A stretch of DNA of 64,000 nt from an uncultured virus (IMG/VR IMGVR_UViG_3300026521_000001) (IMGVR_UViG_3300026521_000001), one strand, 5' to 3'. Shown: positions 2,212 through 53,800, numbered from the stretch's first letter. Program-made: numbers and translations. Notes: generated from the letters alone by a model not told the origin.

Positions 2212-3303
2212 TTATCTATTCATAATTTCATTATAAAGTCTATCAAACTCTTCATCAGACATATCAGCATAATTTATATGATAATCTGCATAACTTCTTT
2301 GTGGTTTAACAGCTTTATTTATACTTGCTCTTTGTTTAGTCTCTTGCATTTGCATTTGCTGTACTTGTTTTTGTTGTTGATTATTTTGAGCCATATGCAT
2401 TGCTTCTTGTCTTTTTTGTTCAATTACCTTACCTGCTAATTGAGCATACGTTTCAATATATGAACCAGTAGTATTACCTAATAACATTTGTTTAGTAACT
2501 AATGGTTCAACTTCAAAGAAAATACCTGATTTAATATCTTGATGTAATCCTTCAATTAAATTAGGGTTTTTCATTAACATCTCTTTACTTTTTGGATCCA
2601 GTACAGATTCAATTACTTTAACTGTTGTAGGATACTCTGCATCTTGAGATATTCTATCTTCAACTTCTTTAAGCTGTACTTCAATTTCATTAGGTGCATA
2701 ATTTTTAGGAGTGTATTGAATCTCATCATCTGGATCAAACTCTTCATATACATCTAAATTTACATCTTTAATTAGTTTTTTAACAGCATCTTTATTTCCC
2801 TGTTTAATATCAACTAATAAATTTAAATCTTCTACACTTAAATTCTGTTGTTGCATCAATTCTACAGCACCTCTAAAAGGACTGATTTGTTGCATTTTTC
2901 TTGTATAATCTACACCTTTACTTGCTAATTGATAGAGTTCTTCGATGTCTTCGATTGGAATCTCTTTACCTGCAGCTTTCAAAGGTTTAAGTTCAAACTG
3001 AGTATTTTTATTTGTAGATTTATCTTCTTTAGGTTGCTCTTCTTTAGAGTCCTTAGTATTTTCATCTACATTTTCTTCATTCAGTTTAGTATTTGTTTCT
3101 GTATTAGAATCCTGTCCATCTTCAGGTTGTTCTAATTCATTTTTAATACTTTCTAATTCAGCTAAATCATCTGGATCTAAATCATCTTCTTTAGGTACAG
3201 ATTGCTTAGCTTCTCTTGCCATTGCTTCTAATTCTTCATCAGATTTTTCCCATAAAGAATCTTCATCTAAAGGTGTTACTTCTGGGTTTGTTTCTTTATT
3301 CAT
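2212..3303 (-). CDS. N4 gp57-like protein (acidic, scaffold-like)
   Basis: Acidic N-terminus, 'LASKGVDYTRKMQQI' motif, C-terminal 'DMSDEEFDRL'; immediately upstream of the capsid gene. Confidence 0.8.
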   Translation of the reverse strand: MNKETNPEVTPLDEDSLWEKSDEELEAMAREAKQSVPKEDDLDPDDLAELESIKNELEQPEDGQDSNTETNTKLNEENVDENTKDSKEEQPKEDKSTNKNTQFELKPLKAAGKEIPIEDIEELYQLASKGVDYTRKMQQISPFRGAVELMQQQNLSVEDLNLLVDIKQGNKDAVKKLIKDVNLDVYEEFDPDDEIQYTPKNYAPNEIEVQLKEVEDRISQDAEYPTTVKVIESVLDPKSKEMLMKNPNLIEGLHQDIKSGIFFEVEPLVTKQMLLGNTTGSYIETYAQLAGKVIEQKRQEAMHMAQNNQQQKQVQQMQMQETKQRASINKAVKPQRSYADYHINYADMSDEEFDRLYNEIMNR

Positions 3304-3668: not shown

Positions 3669-3932
3669 TTATTGCATTGGTTGTTGTTGTTGTGGTTGCC
3701 CTCCACCTTGCTGTTGTTGTGCATGTTGTAAATATCTCATTACAACTTGTTTTACTACACTTGGTATATTAGGATCATTCATAATATCTTGTGGACTAAC
3801 TTGTCCTGCTTGGATAGCTTGAATAATCTTAATTGCCATAGCTTTTATCTGCTCTCCTTGTTGATCACCTCCTTGAGGTTGTTGAGCAGGTTGAGCCATA
3901 CCGCCTTGTTGCATTTGTGCTTGCTCATCCAT
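3669..3932 (-). CDS. Gln-rich small protein
   Basis: AAGGA RBS; Q/G/P-rich ends around a short helical core. Confidence 0.65.
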   Translation of the reverse strand: MDEQAQMQQGGMAQPAQQPQGGDQQGEQIKAMAIKIIQAIQAGQVSPQDIMNDPNIPSVVKQVVMRYLQHAQQQQGGGQPQQQQPMQ

Positions 3933-3986
3933 TTTGTATCCTTTATTACTTTGTAGGAGAATTATATACTAATTACTCCCTATTTG

Positions 3987-6026
3987 TCAATTCTTAGGCT
4001 TCTTAGCTTGTATATTAGCTAACTCTTTCTTAGTAAGTAAATCTAATAGAGTTTTATTTAACTCTAATTTATTTTTACTTGTAATCTCATTAGCTTTTAA
4101 TTCTAAGTTAGCTTGATGTTTCATAATATCTGTAACAGATTTTAATTTCTCTATTTGCATTTGATTTTTATGGTCTGTATCTTCTTGTTTTCTTGTAAAA
4201 TCTAAGTCTAATAAATCAGCTTTACTTTGAGCTTCTTGTGCTTTTGCATGTTTAAGAGCATAATCAGCTTCATTTTCTTTAGCACCTGCTTGTTTAAATG
4301 AGATTTCAGCTTTAGCTTTTTCTATCTCAAGTTTTTTCATCTCTTCTGCTAATGGGTCTGGTTTAGGTTGGAATTGTGCTAATTTAATTGCTAATTCAGG
4401 CATACCACTTAACTCAGCTATTTCTGCCATAGCTATTTTAGACATTTCCATAGGCATATTAGGACCCATAGTCTGTAATAAGAAAGATAACTTTTTAACT
4501 TTAGAATCATTAGCTTGATTTGTAGATATATTTATTTCAAAGTCAGAATATAAATCTTCTACATAATCATTACTTGGTTCAAATGGGATACCTGTAATAT
4601 CTTGTATTTCTTCTGGTTCCATGAAATAATACATATAACTAAGCCATTTAATTAATAATGGTTTAATAGCATTTTCAGCTATATTTCTAACTAAATCTAA
4701 TTCTCTCACTGCTGGAGCATTTAATTTATTACTCTCACTTGCTGCTGTAGCACCAAGAGCTTGCGAACCAGTTCCTGAACCAGGAAGAGTATTACTTAAA
4801 GTATTTATTTCATTATCTACTTCATGCATAATAGTAAATATCTGATTATTTATAGGAGTATAGTGTCCTTGATAAAATTCATTGGGAGAAATATTATATT
4901 CGAAAGGCTTACCTTCCATAAATCTCTTTTTATTTATAGCATCTAAATTACCTTTTCTAACTCCTCTTTGTTGAGAATTACTTTGTGCTAAGTCATCAAT
5001 AATACCTCTAATAATCCCTGTTTTAATTTTCTGTAAATCATCTAATATATCTGGCATAGATAACCCATAAATACTAAAAGGTTTCTTCGTAAATTGTAGT
5101 ACTATAAAAGGTATTTTTTCATCTGGATAAGGATTATTTTCAAGTCTAATAATAGTATCATTTATCCATGTACATACTATTGGTTCTGCTATACCATCTC
5201 CATTTAAATCATAATTACCCCAATATTCATACATAACTAATTTTCTTCTTGCTGAATCTTTAAAATTAAATAATTTTTTAGTTTCTTCATCATCTCTGAT
5301 CCAGTCAAATGTAGTGTCATGATCATCTTGATACTCTTGTAACATTTCAGAATTTACTTTAGTCTCTATTTGATCTAAATTTTTATATATACCTTGTTGT
5401 TTTAATCCACTTAAAGAAGTTTCTGTTCTATGAATTATAAATTGAATGTCTTCTTGTTTAGTTGCTCTTGGATCAATGTAAATATCTTCATTTCTACATA
5501 CTATAGCAGTAGGTTCATTTACAATATTAACTGTATCTTTTACTGTCATAGAACCAAAGTTTATTTGATGTCCTGTAGCTGTTGTATGTACTATAGGTAA
5601 TTCTTTACTAATATCTTTACTTTTATAGTCCCACCCTGTCCTAATTACAGCAGTACCTTCTATTTGTAATGTTTTAATTAAATCAGTCATAAAAGTATAT
5701 CTTGGGAATTTACGAGTAAATTTATAATTGGCTAATTTCATTGATTGTAATACAAAACCTTTTCTCTTAACATGTAAAGTAGATAATTTAACTATCTTCG
5801 TATTATTTACGAATGGTTCTTTAATTATAGAATGTTGTTGTTCTACTTGTCTAAATATATCTCTACTTACAAATTTAGATCTACCTTTCTTCTCATTTCC
5901 ATATAATTTACCTTCATATCTATCTATAGAGTTTTTTATATACGGATTTACTTCAGTATTTTTATACTCTTGTACATCTTTTAAATCTTGTTTAAATTTT
6001 TCTAAAATACTATTTAAATTTATCAT
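3987..6026 (-). CDS. Portal protein (N4 gp59 family)
   Basis: 679 aa; YGNEKKGRSKFVSRDI, YEYWGNYDLNGDGIAEPIV, IRLENNPYPDEKIPF, LSFLLQTMGPNM motifs. Confidence 0.93.
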   Translation of the reverse strand: MINLNSILEKFKQDLKDVQEYKNTEVNPYIKNSIDRYEGKLYGNEKKGRSKFVSRDIFRQVEQQHSIIKEPFVNNTKIVKLSTLHVKRKGFVLQSMKLANYKFTRKFPRYTFMTDLIKTLQIEGTAVIRTGWDYKSKDISKELPIVHTTATGHQINFGSMTVKDTVNIVNEPTAIVCRNEDIYIDPRATKQEDIQFIIHRTETSLSGLKQQGIYKNLDQIETKVNSEMLQEYQDDHDTTFDWIRDDEETKKLFNFKDSARRKLVMYEYWGNYDLNGDGIAEPIVCTWINDTIIRLENNPYPDEKIPFIVLQFTKKPFSIYGLSMPDILDDLQKIKTGIIRGIIDDLAQSNSQQRGVRKGNLDAINKKRFMEGKPFEYNISPNEFYQGHYTPINNQIFTIMHEVDNEINTLSNTLPGSGTGSQALGATAASESNKLNAPAVRELDLVRNIAENAIKPLLIKWLSYMYYFMEPEEIQDITGIPFEPSNDYVEDLYSDFEINISTNQANDSKVKKLSFLLQTMGPNMPMEMSKIAMAEIAELSGMPELAIKLAQFQPKPDPLAEEMKKLEIEKAKAEISFKQAGAKENEADYALKHAKAQEAQSKADLLDLDFTRKQEDTDHKNQMQIEKLKSVTDIMKHQANLELKANEITSKNKLELNKTLLDLLTKKELANIQAKKPKN

Positions 6027-7735
6027 TTTCCATTATCCTTTAAGAATTTATTTAATATATTGAACCAGATATAATTATTAAAATTATAACCTAATATAGT
6101 ATCTCTTTCTACTACAACTAAAAATTTTAATGAATAATATAATAATTCCACAAAATCAAGCAAGATAAAATCTTTAGATATATTATATATTAATGGAAAT
6201 AATATATTATTTCTACTATCTTTAGCTTTATAAGTATAATCTTTATTATCTAATCTATATGTTATTTGTATCTCTTTTATAGAATACTCTATATAATATT
6301 CTTCAAAGTATTTTCTAATAAATATATTATTATCTGGATCAACTACTTTTACAAATGTACCTATTTTACCAGGATAATGATGTGTAACAGTATCAGTATT
6401 TATATTGTAACTGAATGATATAAAATTATTATCATTTTTTCTTATTTTCATATTAGTAGTAGTATCATTATTAGCATAGTATTTATGCATTAAATTAAAG
6501 AGATATTCATTTATAATAGTTTTTTCTTTATATGGATCAATTAATTGTATTGCAAGTATTTCATCTATAATATCTTGTTTAAAAGTTACACTACTATAAG
6601 CATTCATAGTCATGAAATATTTATTAGTCATCAATCCCCATTTATCAGAAAGTAATTTTTGGTGTTTAATTTCAAGTATATTCTGTAATTGAATATCTTC
6701 TTCTATAAGAAATTTTTCTTTGGCATCTGTTAAATAGCATTTTTTGGTTCTATCATCTAATAAATACTCTACATATATCAATTCATCTGTATTAAAATTT
6801 CTTTTTATTGATATTTTATCTTTATCTATATCTATAGTCTCATCATCTTTATCATCTTGATTATCATCATCATTACTCGAACCAAGTGTACCAGAATCTA
6901 TATCATAATCTATATCTTCTTTAAATGATATTTGATTATTATCATTATCTGCGTCTTTTACTGTAAGACTATGAGTATTATCGTCAGTATCTTTTACATC
7001 AAATGATCTATCAATTAAATCAGACCAATCTAACTGAGGTGGATATATATCTTTTACATCTATAAAAGTACCAGCTTCTGTACCACTTGAAACATTCTGA
7101 TTAAACTTAAATTTTCTCTTTTTATTATAAGTATGTGTAGTTCTTATTTTATCATCTGAATAATTACAATCTGAACCAGAAAGAATATAAGTATCATTGT
7201 TTATAATATCTGTATTGGTATCTTCATCATAATTATTATTATCTTTAAGGTAATTTATTACATTCTCATCACAATCTTCTGTAGCATGTATAGTATATTT
7301 ATCATCATTTCTATCTACTGATTCTATAAAATAATGTTTACTATCATCTTTAAATTCATCTGTTTCAAATGAATATTCTTTGTTTCTTTGAAGATACCAT
7401 AATGCTTGATACAATTCATCTAAATTATCGTTATATTGAGAAAATACTATTTTTTCAGCATTATCATCTACATTGTCAATGATATACTGAAGAACTGCAT
7501 TTCTATCAACATATTTTATCTTTGAACCAGTAGAATAAGAAGATAAATTAAAAGCAGATGAGTTATGATTTTTAATAAGAACAAGTTGTTTATACATAGA
7601 TTTCATAGCTTCCATATTTGTATCTACTCTTGGTTTATTAAAAGCCATTAAGTCCTTTAAACTAAATTTATTATCATCTGGTTCATCTGGGATAGAAAGG
7701 ATATTAAATCCTTCCACTAAATTCTCTAACCTCAT
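6023..7735 (-). CDS. Putative virion structural protein (possibly N4 gp53-like)
   Basis: 570 aa acidic ORF overlapping the portal and gp54-like genes. Confidence 0.55.
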   Translation of the reverse strand: MRLENLVEGFNILSIPDEPDDNKFSLKDLMAFNKPRVDTNMEAMKSMYKQLVLIKNHNSSAFNLSSYSTGSKIKYVDRNAVLQYIIDNVDDNAEKIVFSQYNDNLDELYQALWYLQRNKEYSFETDEFKDDSKHYFIESVDRNDDKYTIHATEDCDENVINYLKDNNNYDEDTNTDIINNDTYILSGSDCNYSDDKIRTTHTYNKKRKFKFNQNVSSGTEAGTFIDVKDIYPPQLDWSDLIDRSFDVKDTDDNTHSLTVKDADNDNNQISFKEDIDYDIDSGTLGSSNDDDNQDDKDDETIDIDKDKISIKRNFNTDELIYVEYLLDDRTKKCYLTDAKEKFLIEEDIQLQNILEIKHQKLLSDKWGLMTNKYFMTMNAYSSVTFKQDIIDEILAIQLIDPYKEKTIINEYLFNLMHKYYANNDTTTNMKIRKNDNNFISFSYNINTDTVTHHYPGKIGTFVKVVDPDNNIFIRKYFEEYYIEYSIKEIQITYRLDNKDYTYKAKDSRNNILFPLIYNISKDFILLDFVELLYYSLKFLVVVERDTILGYNFNNYIWFNILNKFLKDNGK

Positions 7736-8472: not shown

Positions 8473-9153
8473 TTATCCTTTTATATTAAATCTATGTTCT
8501 GTAATACTTGAAGCAGTAAATATAGTATCTTCTATACTATTAGCTGTAGTACTACTATCAGTGTCATTTATATCCCCATCAAATTTAACTCTTCTTTTAT
8601 CACTTCTGATCCAAGTTATTTTATGTTCTTCAGTATCTCCGTTACTATTTATCCATCTTACTGTTCTACCTACAATATTATGGTCATAAGGTCTTGCTGC
8701 ATCACTAAAATCTTTAATATTTACCGTATCTCCAGCTGCTTTATCTCCTGTATCTCCGTCGAATCGAAAATCAAATTTATCATTATATTCAATCACACAT
8801 TCAGTAATCATTTTAAATTTAGTACCTATAAATTTTTTATAGTTCAAGAAATTAAAATGTTCTCTTAATGTATTATGGTCATTATATTTACTATCTGAAT
8901 AAGGATAATATAATCTCTTATTATTGATTACTATAAATTTATTATCTTGATTATTTATATCGATAAGAGTACATTTCATATAGATATTCTGGATGTTATA
9001 GTATTCACTCCATATCTCACTATTATCTATCAATTTATGATATAAATCATATACTACTATATTGTATCTCAATGTTATTAAATCTTTTATATAAATATCT
9101 TGATACAATGAATCATATTCAGGTATTTCTTTTAAATCTATATATTTTTGCAT
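8473..9153 (-). CDS. Hypothetical protein (late module)
   Basis: 226-aa ORF with AAGGA RBS, tightly packed. Confidence 0.6.
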   Translation of the reverse strand: MQKYIDLKEIPEYDSLYQDIYIKDLITLRYNIVVYDLYHKLIDNSEIWSEYYNIQNIYMKCTLIDINNQDNKFIVINNKRLYYPYSDSKYNDHNTLREHFNFLNYKKFIGTKFKMITECVIEYNDKFDFRFDGDTGDKAAGDTVNIKDFSDAARPYDHNIVGRTVRWINSNGDTEEHKITWIRSDKRRVKFDGDINDTDSSTTANSIEDTIFTASSITEHRFNIKG

Positions 9154-9162
9154 ATTTTTTCC

Positions 9163-10836
9163 TTAGTGTACATCTTGCATTCTAATAATTAATTCAGAAT
9201 ATAATAATACCAAAGATATAGTAGTATTACCACATTTAAAATGTCTTATATTATCTAAATAATAATATTCAGATACATGGTACCTAATACCTGGTACATC
9301 ATAATCATACTCAGTATGTCCAGATACATGTGTATTTTCAGTAGTTGCTAATAAATTATCAGTAACTATTTGTTTTACTGTAGTTCTGTCATTATTTTCA
9401 TTATAAAATAATAATTTACTGTCAGCTATTGCTATATTATTTATTTTAACTGAAACGTCTCCATGTTCATATACCATATTAGTTACTTTAGTATCAGCAT
9501 CTTCTCCTGGTAATTTACCTGGTTTAACAATAGTAATAGTAGTATTTGTAGATTTACATACATTAAAATTACATAATAAAGTACCTTTATTACAATTAGT
9601 AATTTCTGAACCAGAATATATAATATCAAATGTACCTATAGTATCTGGTATCTGTATAGAGTTATCATTTATTAATGTGAAATTATCATCTAATGACAAT
9701 TGTACATTCGATACTTTAGTTAATCCTAATAAAGAATCAGATGGAGATCTTTTAATAGTTAAATATTTAGCTATTGGTTTATTAAATGTAATTATACTTT
9801 TAGGGGTATAAGTATTTTTTTGTAATGGGCAAGGTAGATTGTTATTGGTATCATCTGTCATACCTATCAATCTATACATCCACCCCCGACTATTACATAC
9901 TTTTTTTGGTATATCTACATAAGTAGATAATATATCATTTACACCCTCATCATATATATCTGATCTGCTACTATCATAATGTGTACATCCTTCAGAGTAT
10001 TTATTTGAAATAATTGAATTTCGTAATGTAAACGTACCAAAACTAAATGGTGCTATAGTATACTCTTTAGTTGATGTTATTTTATTAAAATTATTCATAG
10101 CAGATAATGTATCGCAAGCACCTGTATATTTTACATTTCTATATTCTCTAACAGATGCTGTCGTAGTTACAGAAGGTGTATATTTTTTTGCGTCTTCTAT
10201 AACATTACTATAAGTATGAGTACTGACAGCTGCTTTTCTAAATTTATATACTATAGATATTAATTGATATACTCTTGAATTACCATTACTGGCTCTAAGT
10301 GACAACCAATTATGAATAGCTGATTCTGAGCATATTGGTATTATATCTACATTAGTATATATTGGATGATCAATAAAATATCCATGAATATAATCATCAG
10401 TAGGATAAATGTAATCGACTCCTAATATAGCAGACGGATCATTTTTTATTTTATTAGACATATATATGATAGCTTCTTCTGATATTATTTCAGGTACTTC
10501 TTCTCCTATACTATCATAATATTCTTTTATATAAGCAGTTATTTTTGGGCAATCAAAGTCTGGAGGATTATATGTAGGAGAAATAAGTGAAGGTAATGTA
10601 GGATCAAAGATTTTATAATCATTACTATCTATTTCTTCTAATCCAAGAGATGGATTCCATATAGGTTCCCCATCTATATAATTAAAATCTTGATTAGCTA
10701 TCCAATCTGTGAAAGATATAGATGATCCATTATTCCAGTCATTTAACAATAAGGGGTATTCATTTATAGCATCTATTTTAAGACGTTTTATTTGTCCTGG
10801 TTCATTATAAGAATATTGTTGTAATAAATTATCCAT
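9163..10836 (-). CDS. Hypothetical tail-associated protein
   Basis: 557 aa, beta-rich composition, AAGGA RBS, in the tail cluster. Confidence 0.55.
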   Translation of the reverse strand: MDNLLQQYSYNEPGQIKRLKIDAINEYPLLLNDWNNGSSISFTDWIANQDFNYIDGEPIWNPSLGLEEIDSNDYKIFDPTLPSLISPTYNPPDFDCPKITAYIKEYYDSIGEEVPEIISEEAIIYMSNKIKNDPSAILGVDYIYPTDDYIHGYFIDHPIYTNVDIIPICSESAIHNWLSLRASNGNSRVYQLISIVYKFRKAAVSTHTYSNVIEDAKKYTPSVTTTASVREYRNVKYTGACDTLSAMNNFNKITSTKEYTIAPFSFGTFTLRNSIISNKYSEGCTHYDSSRSDIYDEGVNDILSTYVDIPKKVCNSRGWMYRLIGMTDDTNNNLPCPLQKNTYTPKSIITFNKPIAKYLTIKRSPSDSLLGLTKVSNVQLSLDDNFTLINDNSIQIPDTIGTFDIIYSGSEITNCNKGTLLCNFNVCKSTNTTITIVKPGKLPGEDADTKVTNMVYEHGDVSVKINNIAIADSKLLFYNENNDRTTVKQIVTDNLLATTENTHVSGHTEYDYDVPGIRYHVSEYYYLDNIRHFKCGNTTISLVLLYSELIIRMQDVH

Positions 10837-23722: not shown

Positions 23723-23755
23723 ATATTATCCTTTGGTTCAAGATTACATATGATA

Positions 23756-23764
23756 ATTATACCA
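23756..23764 (-). promoter_or_regulatory. Extended -10 late promoter (TGGTATAAT)
   Basis: Minus strand reads CATATGGTATAAT about 35 nt upstream of the gp69-like ATG. Confidence 0.55.
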
Positions 23765-23919
23765 TATGTAACCCATAAAAATAAAATCAACCAAAGAATA
23801 ACATACTTCAATGAATAATTTAGAAGCGTCGAAATTATACTTAAATCGAACCAGAAATGCAAACTAATTAATTAGCATTGTAACAGAATACCTTATTTAA
23901 GGGATTTATATAAAGAAAG

Positions 23920-23986
23920 TGATATAATTTCTGAGAAGATTTCTCTGAAAGAATTTCTTTCAAGGAAATTTCTTGAAATTATATCA
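23920..23986. repeat. 12-bp inverted repeat enclosing three short hairpins
   Basis: TGATATAATTTC (23920-31) and GAAATTATATCA (23975-86); internal arms GAGAA/TTCTC, GAAAGA/TCTTTC, AAGGAA/TTTCTT. Confidence 0.7.
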
Positions 23987-24005
23987 ATATTTTTAGATTT
24001 GTCAA
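23978..24005 (-). promoter_or_regulatory. Consensus sigma70 promoter pointing into the late module
   Basis: Minus strand TTGACA-N16-TATAAT with TG extension; N4 late genes are transcribed by host sigma70 RNAP. Confidence 0.7.
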
Positions 24006-24149
24006 GTGAAAGCTTTAAGGAAATTTTTTTAATTTAGTATGAGTTCAGTAAACTACTCTGGATCAACTTCTGACGAAGTATCCCCCCCGTAGGGAGGTTA
24101 AGGTACTGTTCTTTTATTATCTGTGCAAATAAATAAATAAGGAGACATT

Positions 24150-24293
24150 ATGGAGTACGGAACATTAGTAGGAGGGTTTTTAATAATATTCTTCGCATAT
24201 AAGATATTTGGAGCTAAGCAAGGATTCGGTCCTTGGCTGCAAGAGCAGTTCAAGGGAGAAGGCAACCACAATGCAGAGTTTAAACCATCATAA
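24150..24293 (+). CDS. Small early membrane protein (47 aa, not in ORF track)
   Basis: AAGGAG RBS; MEYGTLVGGFLIIFFAYKIFG...; followed by a terminator. Confidence 0.7.
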   Translation: MEYGTLVGGFLIIFFAYKIFGAKQGFGPWLQEQFKGEGNHNAEFKPS

Positions 24294-24315
24294 GATGGTT
24301 ATTCTCTTTCTTTTT
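24283..24315 (+). terminator. Intrinsic terminator
   Basis: AACCATC-ATAA-GATGGTT followed by a T/C-rich tract. Confidence 0.6.
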
Positions 24316-24326
24316 CGCTTCGCTCA
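24314..24326 (+). promoter_or_regulatory. Candidate vRNAP hairpin promoter 1
   Basis: Template strand T-GA-GC-GAA-GC-GA-A contains the GCGAAGC mini-hairpin seen in N4 early promoters. Confidence 0.55.
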
Positions 24327-24403
24327 CATCACATCACATCACAATAAGATAGGTTATATACTACTATTATCTATGCAAATAAATTAAATATAAAGGATCA
24401 GAC

Positions 24404-24664
24404 ATGACATACCAAGATTTAAGAAAACACGGAAGTTTCTTCATTATGGCAAACGGGGTATTATCAGGATATTATAATCCAGTGAAATCAGACTTAGAAA
24501 AATGCAAGAGTAAAGCTCACTTGATAGAGCTTGCAGCATTTTACAGCAATAGATTAAAGATAAACATTGAGTTTGTGGAAGCGAAAGCAAGTAATAGTAC
24601 AGGGTTTAACCCAACAGATACAAACAATTCAAATTCAAATCAAGAAGAAGAAATACCTTTCTAA
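24404..24664 (+). CDS. Early protein with SSB-like acidic tail (EEEIPF)
   Basis: AAGGA RBS; C-terminus QEEEIPF. Confidence 0.7.
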   Translation: MTYQDLRKHGSFFIMANGVLSGYYNPVKSDLEKCKSKAHLIELAAFYSNRLKINIEFVEAKASNSTGFNPTDTNNSNSNQEEEIPF

Positions 24665-24848
24665 GGTTCTTCTTTTTTTCTCATACATACAAGATAGGTA
24701 TAATAATTAATTAATTATATTAAATCAGAACATAACTAAGATAGGTAAATATTTACATAAAGCTATCATAACTGTTCATATTTAAACAATCTCAAACAAG
24801 ATAGGTAAATATACTATAATTAATTAATCACTCTCAAATCACATTTAT

Positions 24849-24878
24849 CAGCCTTCATCGCTCTCGCTCTTCAGGCTG
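24849..24878 (+). promoter_or_regulatory. Candidate vRNAP hairpin promoter 2
   Basis: Template strand CAGCCT-GA-A-GA-GC-GAGA-GC-GA-T-GA-AGGCTG. Confidence 0.55.
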
Positions 24879-24931
24879 GTTCTATACTTGTATTATCTGT
24901 GCAAAAATAAATTACAATTAAAGGATTAAAA

Positions 24932-25177
24932 ATGGCAGTAGAAGCAGTATTTGAATCAGTAAGTAATAACACAGTATTAAACAAGTTAATCGACAGATGT
25001 CATGAAACACCAAACATTATATTCAGTGTATACTTAACAAGCGAGAGTAGATCATTAATTAAATTACAAATGTACAAAGATAATACATATGACCTATATA
25101 TTCCAAGTAGTAATACATCAGTTAAATCTCCATTTATAACTGATATTATTGATATATGTGAAGAACAATTAATCTAA
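24932..25177 (+). CDS. Early hypothetical protein
   Basis: AAGGA RBS, 81 aa. Confidence 0.7.
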   Translation: MAVEAVFESVSNNTVLNKLIDRCHETPNIIFSVYLTSESRSLIKLQMYKDNTYDLYIPSSNTSVKSPFITDIIDICEEQLI

Positions 25178-25208
25178 TTGATCACAACAGGAAGAAGTTA
25201 AGTAATAC

Positions 25209-25238
25209 ATAGACCTGAGCAAGTCTTTAAAAGGTTCT
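25209..25238 (+). promoter_or_regulatory. N4 middle-promoter-like element / pseudoknot
   Basis: ATAGACCTGA...TTTAA resembles the N4 RNAP II elements; AGAC/GTCT stem with loop GAGC able to pair with GTTC. Confidence 0.5.
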
Positions 25239-25261
25239 AAATTTAAATTAAAGGAAAAGAT

Positions 25262-26182
25262 ATGTTAGAAATTAACACATACTTTGAACCAGATAATGTA
25301 GAAGAAGTAGAAACAGGGTTTAATCCTGTGGATACTGATGTTATAGTTGAAGATAGTAAAGTTGAAGAAAAAGTAGAAGTAGAAGCTGTATTTGAAGATA
25401 TTGAAGATACACCTGATACTGATTTACCATTAAATAATACAATTAAATTCATATCTTATAGATTATTAAAGAAATTTAATAAAAGATATGAATGGTATAA
25501 ATTAAATTGGCTATATGAAACAATTAAAAGTAAAGATAGTTGGGCTTTACAGTATTTAGCTAATATAGTTGGTAGAAAATTCTTCAAAGGTAGTCCGTTA
25601 GAGATTACACAAAAAGGTTTAGAAATAATAGAGTTATTGCCTAAAAGTGTAGGAGAAATTAGAATAGGTGATAGTCCATATAGTGATGTATATACAGGAG
25701 CTTTTATAGTTAAAGAACCAGAGTATAAAAAAGAAGAATGGACTACTATTGAACCAGTAGATGTTACTCAGAATATTATTGAGTATAAAGATAAAAGAGA
25801 CTGGTGTCATAAAGAGTTCTGGAGAGGTAATGAAGATGAATTACCTACAGATGCAGCTTGGATACTAAATGATGTGATATTTACACTTGATGAAAGAGTA
25901 AATAATGTAACTGATTTTAGTTATGATGATATAAAAGATAGTAGTAAAAAATTAGATTTTAATGCTATCAATAGAGAAAAAGCTGCAAGTAAAATATTAA
26001 GAGATAAATGGTTAGGTAGAAGTTTTAGTTTCAAACATTTCTTCGATACAAGAGGAAGAATATACAGTGAGGGTTATCATATAAACCCACAAGGAACTAA
26101 ATATAAAAAAGCAAATCTAACTATGATAAATAACGAGTTTGAATTAGACGGTTTAGAATTAATAAAAGATAAATTACAATAA
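25262..26182 (+). CDS. RNA polymerase II subunit 1 (N4 gp15-like; N-terminal half of a T7-type RNAP)
   Basis: 'FDTRGRIYSEGYHINPQG..YKKA' (DxRGRxY motif). Confidence 0.9.
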   Translation: MLEINTYFEPDNVEEVETGFNPVDTDVIVEDSKVEEKVEVEAVFEDIEDTPDTDLPLNNTIKFISYRLLKKFNKRYEWYKLNWLYETIKSKDSWALQYLANIVGRKFFKGSPLEITQKGLEIIELLPKSVGEIRIGDSPYSDVYTGAFIVKEPEYKKEEWTTIEPVDVTQNIIEYKDKRDWCHKEFWRGNEDELPTDAAWILNDVIFTLDERVNNVTDFSYDDIKDSSKKLDFNAINREKAASKILRDKWLGRSFSFKHFFDTRGRIYSEGYHINPQGTKYKKANLTMINNEFELDGLELIKDKLQ

Positions 26183-26191
26183 AAGGAGAAA

Positions 26192-27205
26192 ATGATGAGA
26201 AGTTATAAAGATATTACAGGTGCAGAATGGGCATTAATTAGTATAGCTAACGAGGCAGGTTTCGATAAACTGCCTTGGGAACAAAGAATTGAAGTAGGAG
26301 TTAAATTGTATAAAAGATACAAAAGAGAAGTAATAGATAAATCAGAAGAATATAAATTTAATACTAAAGAAGATTTATTATTACTTAAAAGATGTAATGA
26401 ATTATATGAGCATTTAGAATTAGGTAAACAAGTACCTAATATATATTTAGATGCAACAGCTTCAGGGTTACAAATTATGTCAGCAATTACACTTGACTTA
26501 GTAGCTGGAGAAAAAGTAAATTTAGGAACCAGTGAAAGAAAAGATGTATATGTAGATACAGCTAATGGTTTAGAAAAATCTTTCGGCATAGCATTAACAA
26601 GAGATGAAATTAAGAAACCATTAATGACATTCTTCTATAATTCTATTGCTAAAATAGAAGAATTATTAGGAGAAGAAAATGCAGAGATATTCATAACTTA
26701 TTTAAAAGAAGAAGGATTTACAGGACCAGTTAAGTTAATGGATTATGTAAATTCTAAATGGGAAGCTAAAAAAGAATATAAATATAGACTTCCTGATATG
26801 GTAGTAAGAGTACCTATTATAGGAACTAAAACAGAAGATATTAAATTATCTGATGGAACTCCATTACCATTTACATATAAAGTAAATGAACCAGATGAAG
26901 ATAAATGGAGAGGTATGGTTCCTAATATAGTTCATTCACTTGATGCTTGGATATTAAGAGAAGTAATAAGAGAATTAAATACTAAAAATATAATAGTACA
27001 TACTATTCATGATTCATTTCAAGTATCAGTTAATAATGCAGTAACATTGATAGATGCTTACAAGAATGCATTTGTTAAATTAGTTGAAGAAGAGCTTATA
27101 TATAAAATATTCAAAGATTTATATGGAGTTGAATTTGAATATGATAAAGAAGTTAAAACTAAAATGATTGAAGCTATAAAAAGAAGTGAATATATGCTGA
27201 GTTAA
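26192..27205 (+). CDS. RNA polymerase II subunit 2 (N4 gp16-like; C-terminal half)
   Basis: Motif A LDATASGLQIM, motif B R..IKKPLMT.FY, NIVHSLDA, motif C IHDSF. Confidence 0.93.
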   Translation: MMRSYKDITGAEWALISIANEAGFDKLPWEQRIEVGVKLYKRYKREVIDKSEEYKFNTKEDLLLLKRCNELYEHLELGKQVPNIYLDATASGLQIMSAITLDLVAGEKVNLGTSERKDVYVDTANGLEKSFGIALTRDEIKKPLMTFFYNSIAKIEELLGEENAEIFITYLKEEGFTGPVKLMDYVNSKWEAKKEYKYRLPDMVVRVPIIGTKTEDIKLSDGTPLPFTYKVNEPDEDKWRGMVPNIVHSLDAWILREVIRELNTKNIIVHTIHDSFQVSVNNAVTLIDAYKNAFVKLVEEELIYKIFKDLYGVEFEYDKEVKTKMIEAIKRSEYMLS

Positions 27206-27235
27206 TCTCAGTGTATATCTCTTTTCTTTTTTTCT
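27190..27235 (+). terminator. Intrinsic terminator after the RNAP II genes
   Basis: ATATATGCTGAG-TTAAT-CTCAGTGTATAT followed by a T-rich tract. Confidence 0.65.
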
Positions 27236-27278
27236 TATAAATATATTATAATTATATAAAATTTTTAAAGGAGGTAAC

Positions 27279-27416
27279 ATGGAAATAATTACTCATGGAT
27301 TACTTACTTTTAGTATGTTAATGCTATTAAGTAAAGATAGAAAACCAGAAGATAGTTTATTAAAAGATACTATTAAAACTATAAACTATTTATTTGGTTC
27401 TAAAATAAGAGTTTAA
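27279..27416 (+). CDS. Small hypothetical protein (45 aa, not in ORF track)
   Basis: AAGGAGG RBS; MEIITHGLLTFSMLMLLSK...; followed by the AATAAGAG/CTCTTATT terminator. Confidence 0.65.
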   Translation: MEIITHGLLTFSMLMLLSKDRKPEDSLLKDTIKTINYLFGSKIRV

Positions 27417-27435
27417 TCTCTTATTCTTCTTTTTT

Positions 27436-27457
27436 CTTCGGTCGCAAGCTCCCTCAG
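27436..27457 (+). promoter_or_regulatory. Candidate vRNAP hairpin promoter 3
   Basis: Template strand CT-GA-GG-GA-GC-TT-GC-GA-CC-GA-AG. Confidence 0.5.
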
Positions 27458-30617: not shown

Positions 30618-30624
30618 GTGTTTA
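30607..30624 (+). terminator. Short hairpin after the DNA polymerase gene
   Basis: GCACTC-TTT-GAGTGT followed by TTATT. Confidence 0.45.
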
Positions 30625-30654
30625 TTAGAGTTATATTATGATATAATTTTAATA

Positions 30655-30856
30655 AGCATTCGCTTGAATGTTTAATTCTCCCTCGTGAAATTTTTTATTT
30701 TAGATATATTTTATGATAGTTGTGAATAACTCCTTTTGAATTTAAATTTTTTAACTTTACAAATATCGCAAATACTTTACTGAGAAAATGTCTTTAATTA
30801 ATTTCATACAACACTCCTTAATTTTAATTTTATAAATACGAGGGAGAACTCTTTTC
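30655..30856 (+). ncRNA. Candidate structured sRNA/leader
   Basis: TGATATAAT at 30639-47; 5' hairpin AGCATTC/GAATGTT; 11-bp perfect long-range stem 30676-86/30838-48 enclosing two ACTCCTT motifs. Confidence 0.4.
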
Positions 30857-30888
30857 CGTATAAACAAATCAAACACAAAGGATAAAAA

Positions 30889-41622: not shown

Positions 41623-43782
41623 ATGCAAGAAGAGATAAAAGAGTATGAATATAATCCTACTCAAGAGAAAATGGTTAAGATTTTACAGAATAAGAACCAA
41701 ACTAAAGAAGCTTTATTCTTTAGAGTTTTAAGTGCTTACTACTTTAGTAAAATAGCAGCAAATATGAGAACTTTTATTGATATAAAAGATGTATTTGGAC
41801 TTATTCCTGTAAATACTTATGCAGTTATACTAGCAACTTCAGGTGCAGGTAAAGGTAAATCTATAAATATTATTGAAAATGATATTTTAAAAGGTTTTAA
41901 AGATAAATTTATCAAAGAGGTACTACCAACACAAGTAGAAAAAAGTTTGGCTAAAATAGCTTCAGAGAGAGCGAGTATTGCTGGTTTGGATCCAGACGAA
42001 GTATATCAGAATTTAATTAGAGAGTACAAAGGTACGGGTCCTTTTTTATTCAACTTTGATGGAGGTACAGCAGCAGCAATTAAACAATTAAGACATAAAT
42101 TATTATTAGCTGGTTTAGGAGCTATGAATCTAGAAATGGATGAAGTAGGTGCTAATCTATCAGCTAATATAGATATGCTTAATGTATTTATTGAGTTATA
42201 TGATGTAGGTAGAGTAAAACCTAAGATTACTAAAAATACTCAAGAAAATAAAAGAAATGAAAGTATAGACGGTGTAACTCCTGCTAATGTACTATTATTT
42301 GGTACTCCAAGTAAATTATTAGATGGTGGTAAAACAGAACAAGAGTTCTATAGTCTTTTAGATATGGGATATGCAAGAAGAATGCTATTTGCTTATATGC
42401 CTAAAATATCTAAAGAGAAACTATCAGCTAAAGAAAAATTAGATATGCTCAGAGATAAATCTTCTGGTTTATTTATAGATGCTTTATATAAACACTTTGA
42501 GAAATTAGCAGCTGATGCTAATATAAATAGAAAATTGTTTGTTAGAGATGATTATTTAATTAAACTATTAGAGTATCAAGCATATTGTGAAGAAAGAGCA
42601 GAAGCTTTAAAAGAACATCAAGAGATGGAAAAAGCTGAAATCATGCATAGATATTTTAGAGCATTGAAACTATCAGGTGCATATGCTTTTGTAGAAGAAT
42701 CTGAAGAAGTTAAATTAGAGCATTTACAACAAGCTATTAAATTAGTAGAAGATAGTGGAGTAGCTTTTAGAAATATCCTTAAGAGAGAGAAAACTTATGT
42801 TAAATTAGCTAAATATGTAGCAGAGTTAGATGAAGATGTAACTCATGCTGATTTACATGAAGATTTACCTTTCTATAAAGGAAGTACTACTGCTAAGAAA
42901 GAAATGCTTGATTTAGCTATTGCTTGGGGATATAAACATTCAATTATTATTAAAAAGAAAATAGTTGATGGTATAGAATTTCTAAGCGGAGAAGCTTTAA
43001 AAGAATTTGATCCAGAAAATGTAATATTAAGTTATTCAACGGATATGACTTATGGTTATAAAAATGTAAATGTAAATTGGGCAGATTTACCTAAATTATT
43101 TACAAGTGATAATTTACACTGGATTAATCATCATTTAAAAGATGGAGATAAAAGTGAAGGGCATAGAGCAACAAGCAATGCTTTACCTGGTTCAAATTTA
43201 GTAGTATTAGATGTAGATGGTGGAACTAAATTAGAAATGGCCAAAGAACTACTAAAAGATTACACTTATTATGTTTATACAACTAAAAGACATGATCCTA
43301 AAGGAGAACATAGATTTAGAGTAGTATTACCATTGACCCATGAAGTAAAATTAGGTGCTGAAGAGTATAAAGATTTTATAAATAGAATCCTTGATTGGTT
43401 ACCATTTGAAGTAGATTCTGCAAGTAATCAAATAGTTAAAAAATGGTTAACTAATAAAGATGCTATATTATATTCAAATGAAGGTGATTTATTAAATGCT
43501 ATGTTATTTATTCCTCATACTAAAAAAGCAGATGAGTTATCACATGATAGAGCATTAATAAGTTCTATGAGTAATTTAGAAGCATGGTTCTATAAAGAAT
43601 GGAAAGACGGTAATAGAAATAAAGCCTTATTTAGATATGCTATGGTTCTTAAAGATAACGGATATGATTTAGTATCTATTAAAAATGCTATTTTTGAGTT
43701 TAACAGAAAAACACCAGACCCATTAGAAGAGACAGAAATTTACGATTCGGTAATGGTAACACTTGCAAAGGAGTTTAAATGA
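41623..43782 (+). CDS. DNA primase (N4 gp43/Dns-like; N-terminal P-loop, C-terminal prim-pol/PriCT)
   Basis: ATSGAGKGKS, NLEMDEVG, VVLDVDGG, YTTKRH...HRFRVVLP, GNRNKALFRYA. Confidence 0.9.
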   Translation: MQEEIKEYEYNPTQEKMVKILQNKNQTKEALFFRVLSAYYFSKIAANMRTFIDIKDVFGLIPVNTYAVILATSGAGKGKSINIIENDILKGFKDKFIKEVLPTQVEKSLAKIASERASIAGLDPDEVYQNLIREYKGTGPFLFNFDGGTAAAIKQLRHKLLLAGLGAMNLEMDEVGANLSANIDMLNVFIELYDVGRVKPKITKNTQENKRNESIDGVTPANVLLFGTPSKLLDGGKTEQEFYSLLDMGYARRMLFAYMPKISKEKLSAKEKLDMLRDKSSGLFIDALYKHFEKLAADANINRKLFVRDDYLIKLLEYQAYCEERAEALKEHQEMEKAEIMHRYFRALKLSGAYAFVEESEEVKLEHLQQAIKLVEDSGVAFRNILKREKTYVKLAKYVAELDEDVTHADLHEDLPFYKGSTTAKKEMLDLAIAWGYKHSIIIKKKIVDGIEFLSGEALKEFDPENVILSYSTDMTYGYKNVNVNWADLPKLFTSDNLHWINHHLKDGDKSEGHRATSNALPGSNLVVLDVDGGTKLEMAKELLKDYTYYVYTTKRHDPKGEHRFRVVLPLTHEVKLGAEEYKDFINRILDWLPFEVDSASNQIVKKWLTNKDAILYSNEGDLLNAMLFIPHTKKADELSHDRALISSMSNLEAWFYKEWKDGNRNKALFRYAMVLKDNGYDLVSIKNAIFEFNRKTPDPLEETEIYDSVMVTLAKEFK

Positions 43783-50792: not shown

Positions 50793-50814
50793 ATTAATAA
50801 CTAAATAATCTATT
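50788..50814. terminator. Inverted repeat at the convergence point
   Basis: AATAGATTA...TAATCTATT between the convergent blocks. Confidence 0.4.
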
Positions 50815-53800
50815 TATCCTACTAAATGGATCCATTAGATTTTCTGCTTCGTCAAAGAAATGAATTTGTCTAGCTGCTATTAAATCAGTAGGAGTGTGAG
50901 TATATGTTTCATATATTTCAGGAACATCTATTAATAATTCATTTATACTACCAAGTTTAGCTACACCTAAAGGTTTCATTTTTATAGTATTTTTTATTAC
51001 TTTTACTGTTCCAAGTAAAAATTTACTAAACATAAACATACCAGTATCATTAGCATATTTTAAATATTCATTCTGGTTCAAGTTGTAATTAATAAAGTAT
51101 TGATCGGCTAATAATAAAGCCTCTTTTTCAGATTTATGTTCTTTTAGAATATAATAATCCATCAATGTTTTCTTAGCTACAACATCTCCATATTGCATTA
51201 TTTTTAATGCTTTTTTAAATAAAGCTGTATCTTCTGTAATAAATAAGGTTTTTACTATACTTTGTGCTTCTGGTTTTAATTTAGATATGTATTTTTTTTC
51301 TATAAAATTAGATATTAAATTAGTATCATTTATATTAGATATAGTAGCATCTTCAATAATTGAACCAACAATACCGCTTTCTACTAATGAATTTAATTTA
51401 TTTTTACTAATAGAGTTTCTTAAATGTTTTAATTTAATTCTTTCTTTAGTAGTAATAATCTTTGCTTTTTCTTTAGATTCTAACTTTCTCATTTCATTAT
51501 ATTCTTTATTTAATTTATCGTACTCAATCCAGTTCTTCTTCATTTCTCTAAACACTTTTTCTATAGGCATATATTGAGATAATACCCAAAAGTTAGACAT
51601 CAAGTTTCCTAATAATACTGCACCATTAGCAATTACCATAAGTGGTTTAACTAATTTAATAAAATCTTTCCATAATTTTTCAAATAATTGAATTTTTCTT
51701 CTTATTTTATTTATATTTTTATTTGTAACATTTTTTAATAACCAGTGATTATATAAAGTTGGATCTTTATACCCCATAGTATTTTTTATTAAATGTGTTG
51801 GTATAGGTAATAATTTATTTCCTAAATATTCTTTAGTAGCTTTAGGTAATATAGCATATAAATCTGGATTAAGTATTTCTCCTGATACTGGATCAACTCC
51901 TATATATGTATATAAATGAGGTTTACTTCTATCCCATGAACCAAGAAAATAATCTATTAATTGTTTATTAATTTCAGTACCATTTATTTTTAAAAACATA
52001 TGTGATTGAGTATTAGATATTACACTTCTTATATCTAAATCATGATTATTTAATTCTGCTTCATGGTCTTTTCTTAAAACATATCTATAATCAACTACTT
52101 CTCCATCTTCATTATACAAAGGAACTACTTTAGTTTCTTTTCTCTCTTTCAATTCTTCAGCTACTTCTTTAGGATTAAAATTTTCATTAGTGTTAATTAC
52201 TGATAATTTATTCTTTATATTTTTAAGTATTTCTTCTCTATATTTTTCTGGATTATCAATATATTCATCACTTAATTTTAATCCCATAGTTGATTGATTA
52301 GTAATTTCAAATGCTCCCTTAGTATAAGCTGGTTCTGTATTTAATCTTTTCATTACATAACTTGTACCAATAGTATTTTTTAATAATCCATTTTCTCCAT
52401 TTATAGTATAATCTACTTCCCACCCATGTGATTTATATAGTTCTAATTTAGAAGCATCTATAACTGCAGACTCATATAAAGATTTACTTTTAGGTTTTAT
52501 ATAACCTTTTATTACATGGACTGGATTAGGGAATAAAGTAAGAGTATCTTTTTTTATAGTATTTCTTATATATTTAATCATCTTAGAGAAGTTTTCTTCA
52601 TCTTCTTCAACATAAGTAATTAATACTTCTAAAGATTTTCCATCTAAATAGTTTATTGAATATAGAGTAGCTAATTCATCTATCTCTTTACTTAAATCTT
52701 CTGTTATATGTCTATCTGATTCTTCTAAAATAAATAACTGTTTAGCTATACCATTAGCATTTAGTTGTAAATGTTCTACTGTAACTTCTCCTGTAAGCAT
52801 ATAATAAGCTAATGCTTTAGTCTGATTTATCATTGCTCTACCATAAGGATGCTCCATTATTCTTTTTTCTAATATTGCTATTCTATTGTCTCTTGCAGGT
52901 TTAACTAATATATATCTTTTTAGTCTATTAATAGGAATAATTGCCAAATCTGTCATTAATATAGCTTTAGTTAATCTTTTTAGTTTATTAGGTGTCTTTA
53001 AACTATCAGGAAGTAAACTGTCTAATAATTCTATATTAGCTGATTCTTGTTGCATTCTTACAGTTTCTTGCATATGTTTTATTTTATTATATAATTCATA
53101 GAATTTAGAATCTAATATATTATCTCTAAACATTTCATTATAAACATCTCTTATTAAACCAGCAATATCTAAATTGAATCTCGCTATAGCTTTAGCATTT
53201 TCTTTAGCTATTCTTGCTAACATTTCTGGATCTTTAACTTTATCTTCTATATGTTTTAAAGTATTATCTACTCCTTGCATAACTAATTTTACAGAACTTT
53301 TAACTCCATTTAATATTTCTTTTACACCTTTTAATTTATTTAGTTCTCTAAATAATTGAGCTATTTTTAATTTTTCTAATAAAGGCGTCTCAGAATAAGT
53401 ATTATTAGCCATTTTTTCAGTTAATAATATAGCAGTAGCAAATATATCATTTAGTTCTTTAGAAGCAGGTTTTTTAGTCATATTCATTATAATTTGATTA
53501 AAAGCTTTAATCACTAAATCTAATAATCTTTCAATACCATTTTTAGGTATTATACCTTCTATTTCAAGATTAGACACTTTAATGTCATTATTTTTTATAT
53601 AATTATTTAAAATATTATTTGTAGTAGCAATAGTAAAAAACTCTTCTGGATCTCCTTTTATATATCTATACATTTCCTTAGATTGTCTTTTAGCTTCGTC
53701 GGTATGTTCTACACCTATAGGAATAAAAAATGTCTCAGGATCGATTTCTGGATTATTATCAAGGTGTTTTATCACAGCTTGTTGTAATTGTAATAATCTG

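Follow-up and report, generated by a model that had tools for sequence, protein, structure and literature searches.

The window analysed here comprises 64,000 nucleotides (nt) of DNA from an uncultured virus (IMG/VR IMGVR_UViG_3300026521_000001), and our subject is a set of four small hairpins, H0 to H3, which lie just ahead of early genes and may serve as promoters for a phage RNA polymerase (RNAP). The window is phage DNA of 26% G+C with two divergent gene blocks, in which profile matches identify an SU10/N4-type portal, a family A DNA polymerase, the two subunits of the T7-like RNAPII (PF00940, PHROGs 2166/2051) and a virion RNAP (vRNAP). The last is encoded by two open reading frames (ORFs) on the minus strand, 55201-62022 (2273 amino acids (aa), polymerase core) and 50794-55176 (1460 aa, C-terminal part), both matching PHROG 2206 (E = 2.6e-48 and 2.5e-93), in line with an earlier reading of the DNA alone (the sequence-only reading) that had taken the virus for an N4-like phage with a virion RNAP. 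Because its proteins are only ~29-42% identical to those of the nearest cultured phages, Alteromonas and other schitoviruses, and megablast found no DNA-level relative among deposited cultured phages, the window is, as judged from its gene content, an uncultured N4-like phage in which the virion RNAP is split and RNAPII has two subunits. The segment 24150-27416, which corresponds to the early region of N4, contains four small ORFs, three of them ahead of the RNAPII genes and one behind. Genes and hairpins are arranged as follows:

24066-24079, minus strand: H0, template ACTTC-GTCA-GAAGT, a 5-bp stem with a GNNA loop closed by C-G
24150-24293, plus strand: ORF1, the first early ORF
24314-24326, minus strand: H1, plus-strand TTCGCTTCGCTCA, minus-strand T-GA-GC-GAA-GC-GA-A, core GCGAAGC
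24404-24664, plus strand: ORF2
24849-24878, minus strand: H2, plus-strand CAGCCTTCATCGCTCTCGCTCTTCAGGCTG, minus-strand CAGCCT-GA-A-GA-GC-GAGA-GC-GA-T-GA-AGGCTG, core GCGAGAGC
25262-26182, plus strand: RNAPII subunit A
26192-27205, plus strand: RNAPII subunit B
27279-27416, plus strand: ORF of 45 aa, ahead of the terminator-like element T4
27436-27457, minus strand: H3, plus-strand CTTCGGTCGCAAGCTCCCTCAG, minus-strand CT-GA-GG-GA-GC-TT-GC-GA-CC-GA-AG

The three mismatch-bearing elements, H1, H2 and H3, lie exactly where the sequence-only reading had placed them and carry GA/GA on the minus strand at every mismatch step. Both arms read 5'-GA-3' on that strand, so that the mismatches are arranged as 5'-GA/3'-AG. 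H1 has a 3-nt loop and, with the G.A pairs uncounted, only GC/GC plus T-A as Watson-Crick pairs; H2 has nine Watson-Crick pairs (interrupted twice), two tandem GA steps and a 4-nt loop; and the H3 loop consists of 2 nt (template TT), not purine, within the core GCTTGC. The GA-GC-loop-GC-GA core that the three were said to share stands out from shuffled sequence: TCGC-N2-4-GCTC (equivalent to GAGC-N2-4-GCGA) occurs four times on both strands of the 64 kb, compared with a mean of 0.09 in 100 shuffles (maximum 2; 0/100 reached 4), and three of the four matches are H1, H2 and H3, on one strand and within a span of 3.1 kb. The fourth (4757-4766, minus strand) is located inside the portal ORF, its outer flanks are not complementary, and it is probably a chance match. 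Looser patterns of the type GA-NN-loop-NN'-GA are not enriched in the window (162 vs 132 expected; in a second count, 10 vs 5.9), indicating that the signal is a specific GC-cored intergenic motif and not GA-rich inverted repeats generally.

Two further features that the sequence-only reading had described are borne out, namely GC-rich islands in AT-rich DNA (54-64% G+C in H1-H3 vs 23-31% in the window) and a position ahead of early genes. H1, H2 and H3 lie 36-78 nt 5' of plus-strand ORFs starting at 24404, 24932 and 27493, and H0 is situated 71 nt 5' of ORF1; put together, H0, H1 and H2 are 54-78 nt from ORF1, ORF2 and ORF3, and H3 is 36 nt before the next ORF. All four are on the template strand upstream of early genes, and H0, H1 and H2 each stand ahead of one of the first three ORFs, an arrangement like that of P1-P3 in N4.

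The best evidence for a role of the G.A steps comes from H3. Relatives were found with an RNAPII-B homologue profile (L001, L002, L003, L008, L009 and L012; 51-56% protein identity), while three further sequences (L007, L010 and L011) are duplicates of L001-L003; a single-protein locus search for relatives gave nothing new, and the profile search was needed. An H3-type hairpin is present once in each of the seven clade sequences (the window and the six relatives), and in all of them it is preceded by a T-rich tract and by the RNAPII operon, from which an ORF may separate it. The plus strands read:

window: CT-TC-GG-TC-GC-AA-GC-TC-CC-TC-AG
L003: CT-TC-AC-TC-GC-AA-GC-TC-GT-TC-AG
L001: TC-TC-GG-TC-GT-AA-AC-TC-CC-TC-GA
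L009 / L008: TC-TC-GC-TC-GC-AA-G(t/a)C-TC-GC-TC-GA
L002 / L012: GCT-TC-G(T/C)-AA-(A/G)C-TC-AGC

Over the five alignable Watson-Crick pairs (35 cells; seven sequences from about four lineages), 94.3% of the cells are paired and both-sided change is seen at 4/5 pairs. The covariation score is 0.876 vs 0.252 in shuffles (0/500 reach 0.876), and it is at most 0.114 in controls with the partner slid by 1-3 columns. Pair types are Watson-Crick only, with no G-U intermediate among the 35 cells. The inner TC/TC step (GA/GA on the template) is invariant (7/7), and the outer one is kept in 5/7 sequences, ordinary pairs taking its place in L002 and L012. The loop-closing pair has switched from C-G to T-A in L001 and again in L002, with C-G kept in L012, the sister of L002, and this repeated switch indicates that the closing pair is real. 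The core TCGYAARCTC is found once per contig in 3/3 relatives searched whole. H3 is thus a selected hairpin, in which the mismatch dinucleotides stay fixed while the surrounding pairs covary, and it is a distinct element, a separate clade-conserved class from H1 and H2, at the early/middle boundary. A conserved TRTGA box follows on its 3' side, and the same box also occurs 3' of promoter-like repeats; in L003, L009 and L008 the stem is followed by TTTG or TCTG, resembling the T-rich spacer plus G of N4.

H0, H1 and H2 resemble known hairpins more directly. The cores of H1 and H2 are listed mini-hairpins of the GCGNAGC / GCGNNAGC type, and that of H3 is not; H0 is identical in L001 (5743-5758). 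We scanned for hairpins in which C-G closes a GNA or GNNA loop. At four or more pair-equivalents the whole window contains six (vs 5.6 expected from shuffles), three of which are H0, H1 and H2, located on the template strand and each ahead of its ORF (ORF1, ORF2 and ORF3). With a three-pair threshold, 23723-25261 gives three template-strand matches vs 0.24 expected, a number reached by 1/200 shuffles. One candidate nearby, H0' (24083-97, CCCCCC-GTA-GGGAGG), was dropped as a promoter hairpin, since it does not occur in L001 and it is the non-template strand that carries its GNA loop. The same scan in the first 9 kb of N4 (four-pair threshold) returns three sites only, 90-102, 557-573 and 4546-4562, which are taken to be P1-P3, and GG starts 11 nt from the loop centre in each.

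N4 promoters have a GC-rich heptamer centred at -11 with flanking inverted repeats, and the N4 vRNAP reads -11A/G, -10G, -8G and +1C, a sheared G:A pair closing the loop (PMC4496689); N4 mini-vRNAP binds the GCGGAGC mini-hairpin (PMC13037366). H1 matches the template bases -8G, -9C, -10G, -11A, -12A and -13G. The N4 heptamer GCGRAGC is exact in H1, H2 has the 8-mer variant GCGAGAGC, H0 has C-GTCA-G, and the GCTTGC of H3 does not match. Further likenesses are the GC-rich core and the GNA loop closed by C-G (GCGAAGC/GCGGAGC in N4, GCGAAGC in H1), the template-strand hairpin 5' of early genes at the early-gene end of the genome, the encoding of both vRNAP and RNAPII, and the terminator-then-promoter layout. 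A second precedent is the N4-like phage LUZ7, which likewise has more than three hairpin promoters: ONT-cappable-seq mapped nine early starts, most of them behind hairpins with stems of at least 4 bp, 3-nt loops and a G start 13-14 nt from the centre; over all its hairpins, loops are 3-4 nt and starts 13-15 nt from the centre (PMC9163698). GC-rich hairpins serve LUZ7 as middle (RNAPII) promoters too (PMC9163698), which offers a precedent for a first middle promoter of the kind that H3 would be.

These observations suggest that H0, H1, H2 and H3 are hairpin promoters for a phage RNAP, a proposal for which we consider the case evenly poised. H0, H1 and H2 are probably N4-type early promoters, and H3 most likely serves vRNAP or RNAPII as a hairpin promoter where the middle region starts. 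In the proposed mechanism the injected virion RNAP would recognise a small hairpin that extrudes from the template (minus) strand and is stabilised by its GNA/GNNA mini-loop with a closing C-G pair. The 2-bp Watson-Crick stem beside the loop would be lengthened by tandem sheared 5'-GA/3'-AG pairs, and only the template strand would fold stably, because the complementary TC/TC strand should be unable to form sheared pairs. In H3, covarying Watson-Crick dinucleotides would alternate with one or two fixed GA/GA steps on a template hairpin whose loop is 2 nt. More doubtful, and put forward tentatively, is the wider proposal that promoter hairpins of this clade use tandem sheared G.A pairs as fixed letters between covarying Watson-Crick steps, fold on one strand and are read by the phage single-subunit RNAP, with H3 as the archetype and H1 and H2 as lineage-specific derivatives built on the GCGNAGC mini-hairpin.

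N4-like hairpin promoters and the GCGNAGC mini-hairpin are already known. What differs here is that stems of two G-C pairs are apparently lengthened by tandem G.A, that loops of 2 and 4 nt occur, and that the H3 mismatches are invariant. The published mini-hairpin is the 7-8-mer alone, as far as PMC13037366 describes it, whereas in the window GA/GA steps and additional pairs surround it. Tandem sheared G.A pairs are known from oligonucleotide studies, and the GA steps in the window have the orientation that stacks stably. For LUZ7, ordinary stems are described and non-Watson-Crick steps are not reported, although figures and supplements of that paper could hold them (PMC9163698); with the same proviso for the LUZ7 stems, we found no literature report of tandem GA as a conserved part of a phage promoter hairpin.

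Several observations weigh against the promoter reading. The stems of N4 have 5-7 Watson-Crick pairs and no mismatches, but H1 has two plus T-A. N4 loops are 3 nt (on stems of 5-7 bp), compared with 2, 3 or 4 nt here. In N4 the spacer is T-rich and GG stands at exactly 11 nt from the loop centre, but there is no common G distance in the window, and none of H0-H3 combines such a spacer with a +1 G at 11 nt. H1 is followed by 27 nt without G (none between 24323 and 24347); for H3 the nearest G is the final base of its own stem (10.5 nt), another comes only at 21.5 nt, and the sequence there is TTAAT; and the G's of H2 are at 10.5-15.5 nt, within or abutting its own stem, so that the only GG at an N4/LUZ7-like distance belongs to H2 and is inside the stem. 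A C7 run (TAT-CCCCCCC; 24082-24088, plus strand) stands directly 3' of H0, and the template TT loop of H3 lacks the purine read by the N4 polymerase. The N4 residues that read the hairpin, including the -11 recognition element, could not be aligned to this vRNAP: its BLASTP match to N4 gp50 spans the motif A region only (E = 6e-08), and a PDB search gave no match. A non-hairpin repeat family is closer to the three early ATGs. The RNA data consist of assembled metatranscriptome contigs, which cannot show 5' ends. In one run (X1), pieces 100% identical to the window have a depth of ~22-23 over ORF1 and RNAPII vs ~3-6 over late and DNA-polymerase parts, and the T-run behind RNAPII-B contains the end of one piece (27221); since contigs cannot show starts and uncovered parts prove nothing, this run gives no conclusion on promoters.

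Standard DNA folding models likewise show no strand asymmetry for H0-H3, and so do not bear out the earlier claim that H1-H3 fold on one strand only. With ViennaRNA DNA parameters the minimum free energy (MFE) of H1 and H3 is 0 on both strands, that of H2 is -5.7 (template) vs -4.7 kcal/mol, and that of H0 is -2.9 (template) vs -2.8. The null result for H1 and H3 is not informative, since standard DNA parameters have no terms for these motifs. In DNA, 5'-GA/3'-AG tandem sheared pairs stack stably and T.C mismatches do not. Conventional thermodynamic models cannot explain the stability of the GCGAAGC mini-hairpin; the melting temperature (Tm) is 76.5 C for GCGAAGC and 71.5 C for GCGAGAGC, and 33 C for the pyrimidine-loop analogue GCTTTTGC (PMC13037366, Table 1). 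The strand asymmetry that we expect would follow from these mini-hairpin data taken together with the general properties of tandem G.A pairs.

Comparison with relatives also bears on H1 and H2, whose GA-flanked versions are absent from the six related clade sequences examined, a further point against the promoter reading. At the exact position of H1, L001 has a 6-bp hairpin, CTTTAC-TTT-GTAAAG (6014-6028), with a template AAA loop, located between the ORF1 terminator and the CAYTCAC...AAGATAGG tract that also follows H1. L003 carries four template-strand C-GGA-G hairpins in early noncoding DNA, with stems that differ and are yet complementary (0/200 shuffles), and L009 carries GC/CC/GCC-TAC-GC/GG/GGC hairpins, with GTA on the template strand. 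Loop-type scan counts are not significant in L001, L009 and L002, where they are reached by 37, 29 and 47 of 200 shuffles. In an N4-like contig, L013, a template GTCGC-GGA-GCGAC hairpin lies just 3' of the RNAPII-B gene. As the early hairpins of the relatives lack GA/GA steps, the mismatch-bearing H1 and H2 are specific to this phage, and an early hairpin of few copies that is family-specific would fit promoters co-evolving with the phage polymerase. The sequence-only reading had treated H1, H2 and H3 as three promoters of one kind; the mini-hairpin cores of H1 and H2 and the covariation of H3 support its interpretation in part, but a single kind is too simple a picture, since H3 forms a separate class, H1 and H2 are phage-specific, and H0 had been missed.

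Beyond the clade, the distant N4-like contig L004 has the 13-mer TGAGCGAAGCGAA, identical to that of H1, in left-end noncoding DNA, where ~0.002 matches are expected in ~58 kb of distant loci. It is on the plus strand, however, which is non-template for rightward early genes and counts against a template-strand promoter. An exact 14-mer scan of viral contigs with TGAGCGAAGCGAAA returned at least 114 stretches in 99 distinct contexts, mostly unrelated single matches. Among the matches listed, TGAGCGAAGCGAA is extended by at least four further Watson-Crick pairs outside T...A in 10/99 contexts (~0.4 expected), two of these ten sharing a context, and by at least three further pairs in 14/99. TAGGT lies within 46 nt downstream in 2/35 contexts (those with GC below 0.38 or containing TAGGT) of the 114 listed. 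The GA/GA-flanked mini-hairpin, as far as complementary flanks can tell, turns up repeatedly at the tips of longer hairpins in viral DNA that is otherwise unrelated. This suggests that the G.A steps are structural, and indicates neither the molecule nor the purpose.

The alternative that survives best concerns terminators and repeats in the same region:

24283-24300, plus strand: T1, terminator-like hairpin plus T-run after ORF1 (RNA fold -8.4 kcal/mol, z -4.4)
24642-24677, plus strand: T2, terminator-like hairpin plus T-run after ORF2 (RNA fold -12.1 kcal/mol, z -3.2)
27190-27218: T3, terminator-like, closing RNAPII-B
27404-27425, plus strand: T4, terminator-like hairpin plus T-run after the 45-aa ORF, directly before H3 (-7.2 kcal/mol, z -3.4)
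24347-24354, 24692-99, 24739-46 and 24799-806, plus strand: exact motif AGATAGGT, a rival or second promoter-like family
24101-24137, 24351-24387 and 24877-24913, plus strand: 37-nt repeat (A/T)GGT-N13-TATTATCTRTGCAAA, three exact 15-mer copies and none elsewhere

Two of the hairpins follow terminators, as the sequence-only reading had stated (H1 after T1, whose T-run continues into H1, and H3 after T4); T2 is not succeeded by a GA hairpin. H1-H3 do not themselves look like intrinsic terminators, since they do not fold as sense RNA (computed for H3) and their T-runs are upstream, not downstream; the real terminators are the separate hairpins T1-T4.

It is possible, though in our view unlikely, that the true phage RNAP promoters are non-hairpin repeats, namely AAGATA followed by GGT together with the 37-nt repeat, and that the hairpins are accessory DNA structures, such as cruciforms that absorb supercoiling, insulators between units, or reinforcements of the terminators before H1 and H3, which these two hairpins do abut. 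There are exactly three 37-nt units, ending 35-41 nt before the ATG of ORF1, ORF2 and ORF3; four of the five exact AGATAGGT copies in the 64 kb are in the early region; both motifs recur in relatives (AGATAGGT in L001, L003 and L009); and GG after an A/T-rich tract resembles the starts of T7-like RNAPs, N4 also starting at GG. However, the repeats may equally be RNAPII promoters or conserved 5' leaders as real early promoters, and hairpins and repeats look coupled rather than alternative, because the GGT of the repeat stands directly 3' of the hairpin in copies 1 and 3, and a GGTT or TGTTT tract begins at the 3' base of the early hairpins in L003 and L009. H2 does likewise (AGGCTG followed by GTTC), its 3' end abutting TGGTTCT, the start of copy 3. 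Terminator reinforcement fails for H2 and H0, which follow no terminator, and leaves the N4-type loop chemistry unexplained. Between H1 and the first AGATAGGT lies a G-free tract of 25 nt with a CATCA repeat (24323-24347), and L001 has a similar tract, CACTCACTTCACATCAC.

Less probable still is a role in DNA replication, with the hairpins as origin elements or as signals for single-strand initiation or priming. Mini-hairpins act in replication at the phage G4 origin and at ssiA. Those of the GCGAAGC type occur at promoters, replication origins and primase sites (PMC13037366). The window encodes a primase-like protein (41623-43782, PriCT_1 match), H3 is unique per genome, and a strand-neutral role would better tolerate the opposite orientation in L004. 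Transcription nevertheless fits better, as there are three or four sites, each just 5' of an ORF, and the strand that carries them is always the template for rightward genes; the TRTGA box after H3 is the one that follows promoter-like repeats, and no AT-rich iteron-type origin architecture adjoins H1-H3.

We regard it as highly improbable that the elements act as RNA, for instance as parts of terminators, processing sites or protein-binding leaders, even though they lie between transcription units and RNA parameters draw the H3 shape for the antisense (GA) strand (-3.7 kcal/mol). The sense RNA of H3 adopts a different structure (MFE -1.6 kcal/mol, z +0.97), the absence of G-U intermediates is unlike an RNA stem, and the covarying closing pair leaves a 2-nt loop, which is implausible for RNA and points to DNA. 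Little sense RNA should reach H1 and H3, as both lie after terminators. Rfam matches were absent from the window, L001, L003 and L009, apart from the tRNAs of L003, and r(GCGAAAGC) melts at 39 C, compared with 76.5 C for the DNA (PMC13037366).

That the hairpins are chance GC-rich inverted repeats without function is scarcely credible overall, and very unlikely for H3 and H0: although the loose GA pattern and the whole-window count of GNA hairpins are near expectation, the specific core is enriched, its matches cluster on one strand in the early region, H3 covaries in seven genomes, and H0 is identical in L001.

Recognition of DNA shape by an RNA polymerase has its textbook example in the N4 hairpin promoters, whose hairpins extrude with the help of gyrase and SSB; the extrusion of such short hairpins, and their folding on the template strand only, have been explained in N4 by loop chemistry alone. 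If the promoter reading is correct, conserved G.A-G.A steps that replace most of a stem would be a second way to build strand asymmetry into a promoter; on the more doubtful wider proposal, they would amount to a strand-selective, non-Watson-Crick structural code in DNA for transcription initiation. The seven natural H3 versions would then form a testable variant set for cruciform extrusion and polymerase recognition, and the pattern would help to annotate early promoters in uncultured N4-like genomes that simple inverted-repeat searches miss.

Other features were observed around these elements. No consensus sigma-70 promoter facing the early genes was found in the region, a point in favour of the promoter reading of the hairpins; one at 24005..23978 on the minus strand (TTGACA-16-TGnTATAAT, 12/12) faces left, towards the late genes, and is conserved in L001, L003 and L009. 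The block containing it is nearly identical in those three relatives despite proteins only ~50% identical, and just downstream of it (23946-23998) are two inverted repeats, TGAAAGAATTTCTTTCA and TTCAAGGAAATTTCTTGAA. A single run of C6-C9 is found on the early-gene strand upstream of the early genes in every N4-like sequence examined:

L001: 5761-67
L002: 5810-16
L003: 4483-89
L009: 1616-21
L012: 975-81
L004: 2235-42
N4 (L017): 32-40

It reads (g)TAT-CCCCCC(C) in the clade of 26% GC and is near the left end in N4; a link with the genome end or with injection is possible.

Two further conserved elements have their own distribution. A hairpin TAGAC-C(T/C)(G/A)A..-GTCT(A/T), followed by TAAAAC/TTAAAAGG, is located shortly before RNAPII-A or neighbouring ORFs (window 25221-25238; L001 6603-6620 and 6810-6826; L009 ~3178-3195; L002 ~9365-9382). 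The palindrome ACCTTATTTAAGG(G) recurs in the clade and varies in position, being upstream of the early region in the window (23889-23902) and L001, and after RNAPII-B in L003 (~8998-9013), L009 (~5026-5040) and L008 (2185-2200).

L003 contains an insert of ~700 nt, richer in G+C, between an early ORF and the RNAPII operon (6040-6745, plus strand). Its predicted fold is -215.7 vs -164.2 kcal/mol in shuffles (z -10), numerous stems are capped by GAAA, and GCCUAAGUCC-NAAA-GGAUAUGG is repeated internally; the insert has no Rfam match at gathering score, and it is a candidate for a large structured RNA or intron. The same relative has four tRNA genes adjoining its early region (3684-4021, minus strand), and there are none in the window.

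The N4 vRNAP is one protein of ~3500 aa; here the gap between the two vRNAP ORFs is 24 nt, and an ORF of 556 aa upstream of them (62036-63706) has no PHROG match. Finally, a 271-nt intergenic region 3' of the DNA polymerase gene (30618-30888) is bracketed by a 10-nt inverted repeat, TTCTCCCTCG ... CGAGGGAGAA, with its arms ~170 nt apart.

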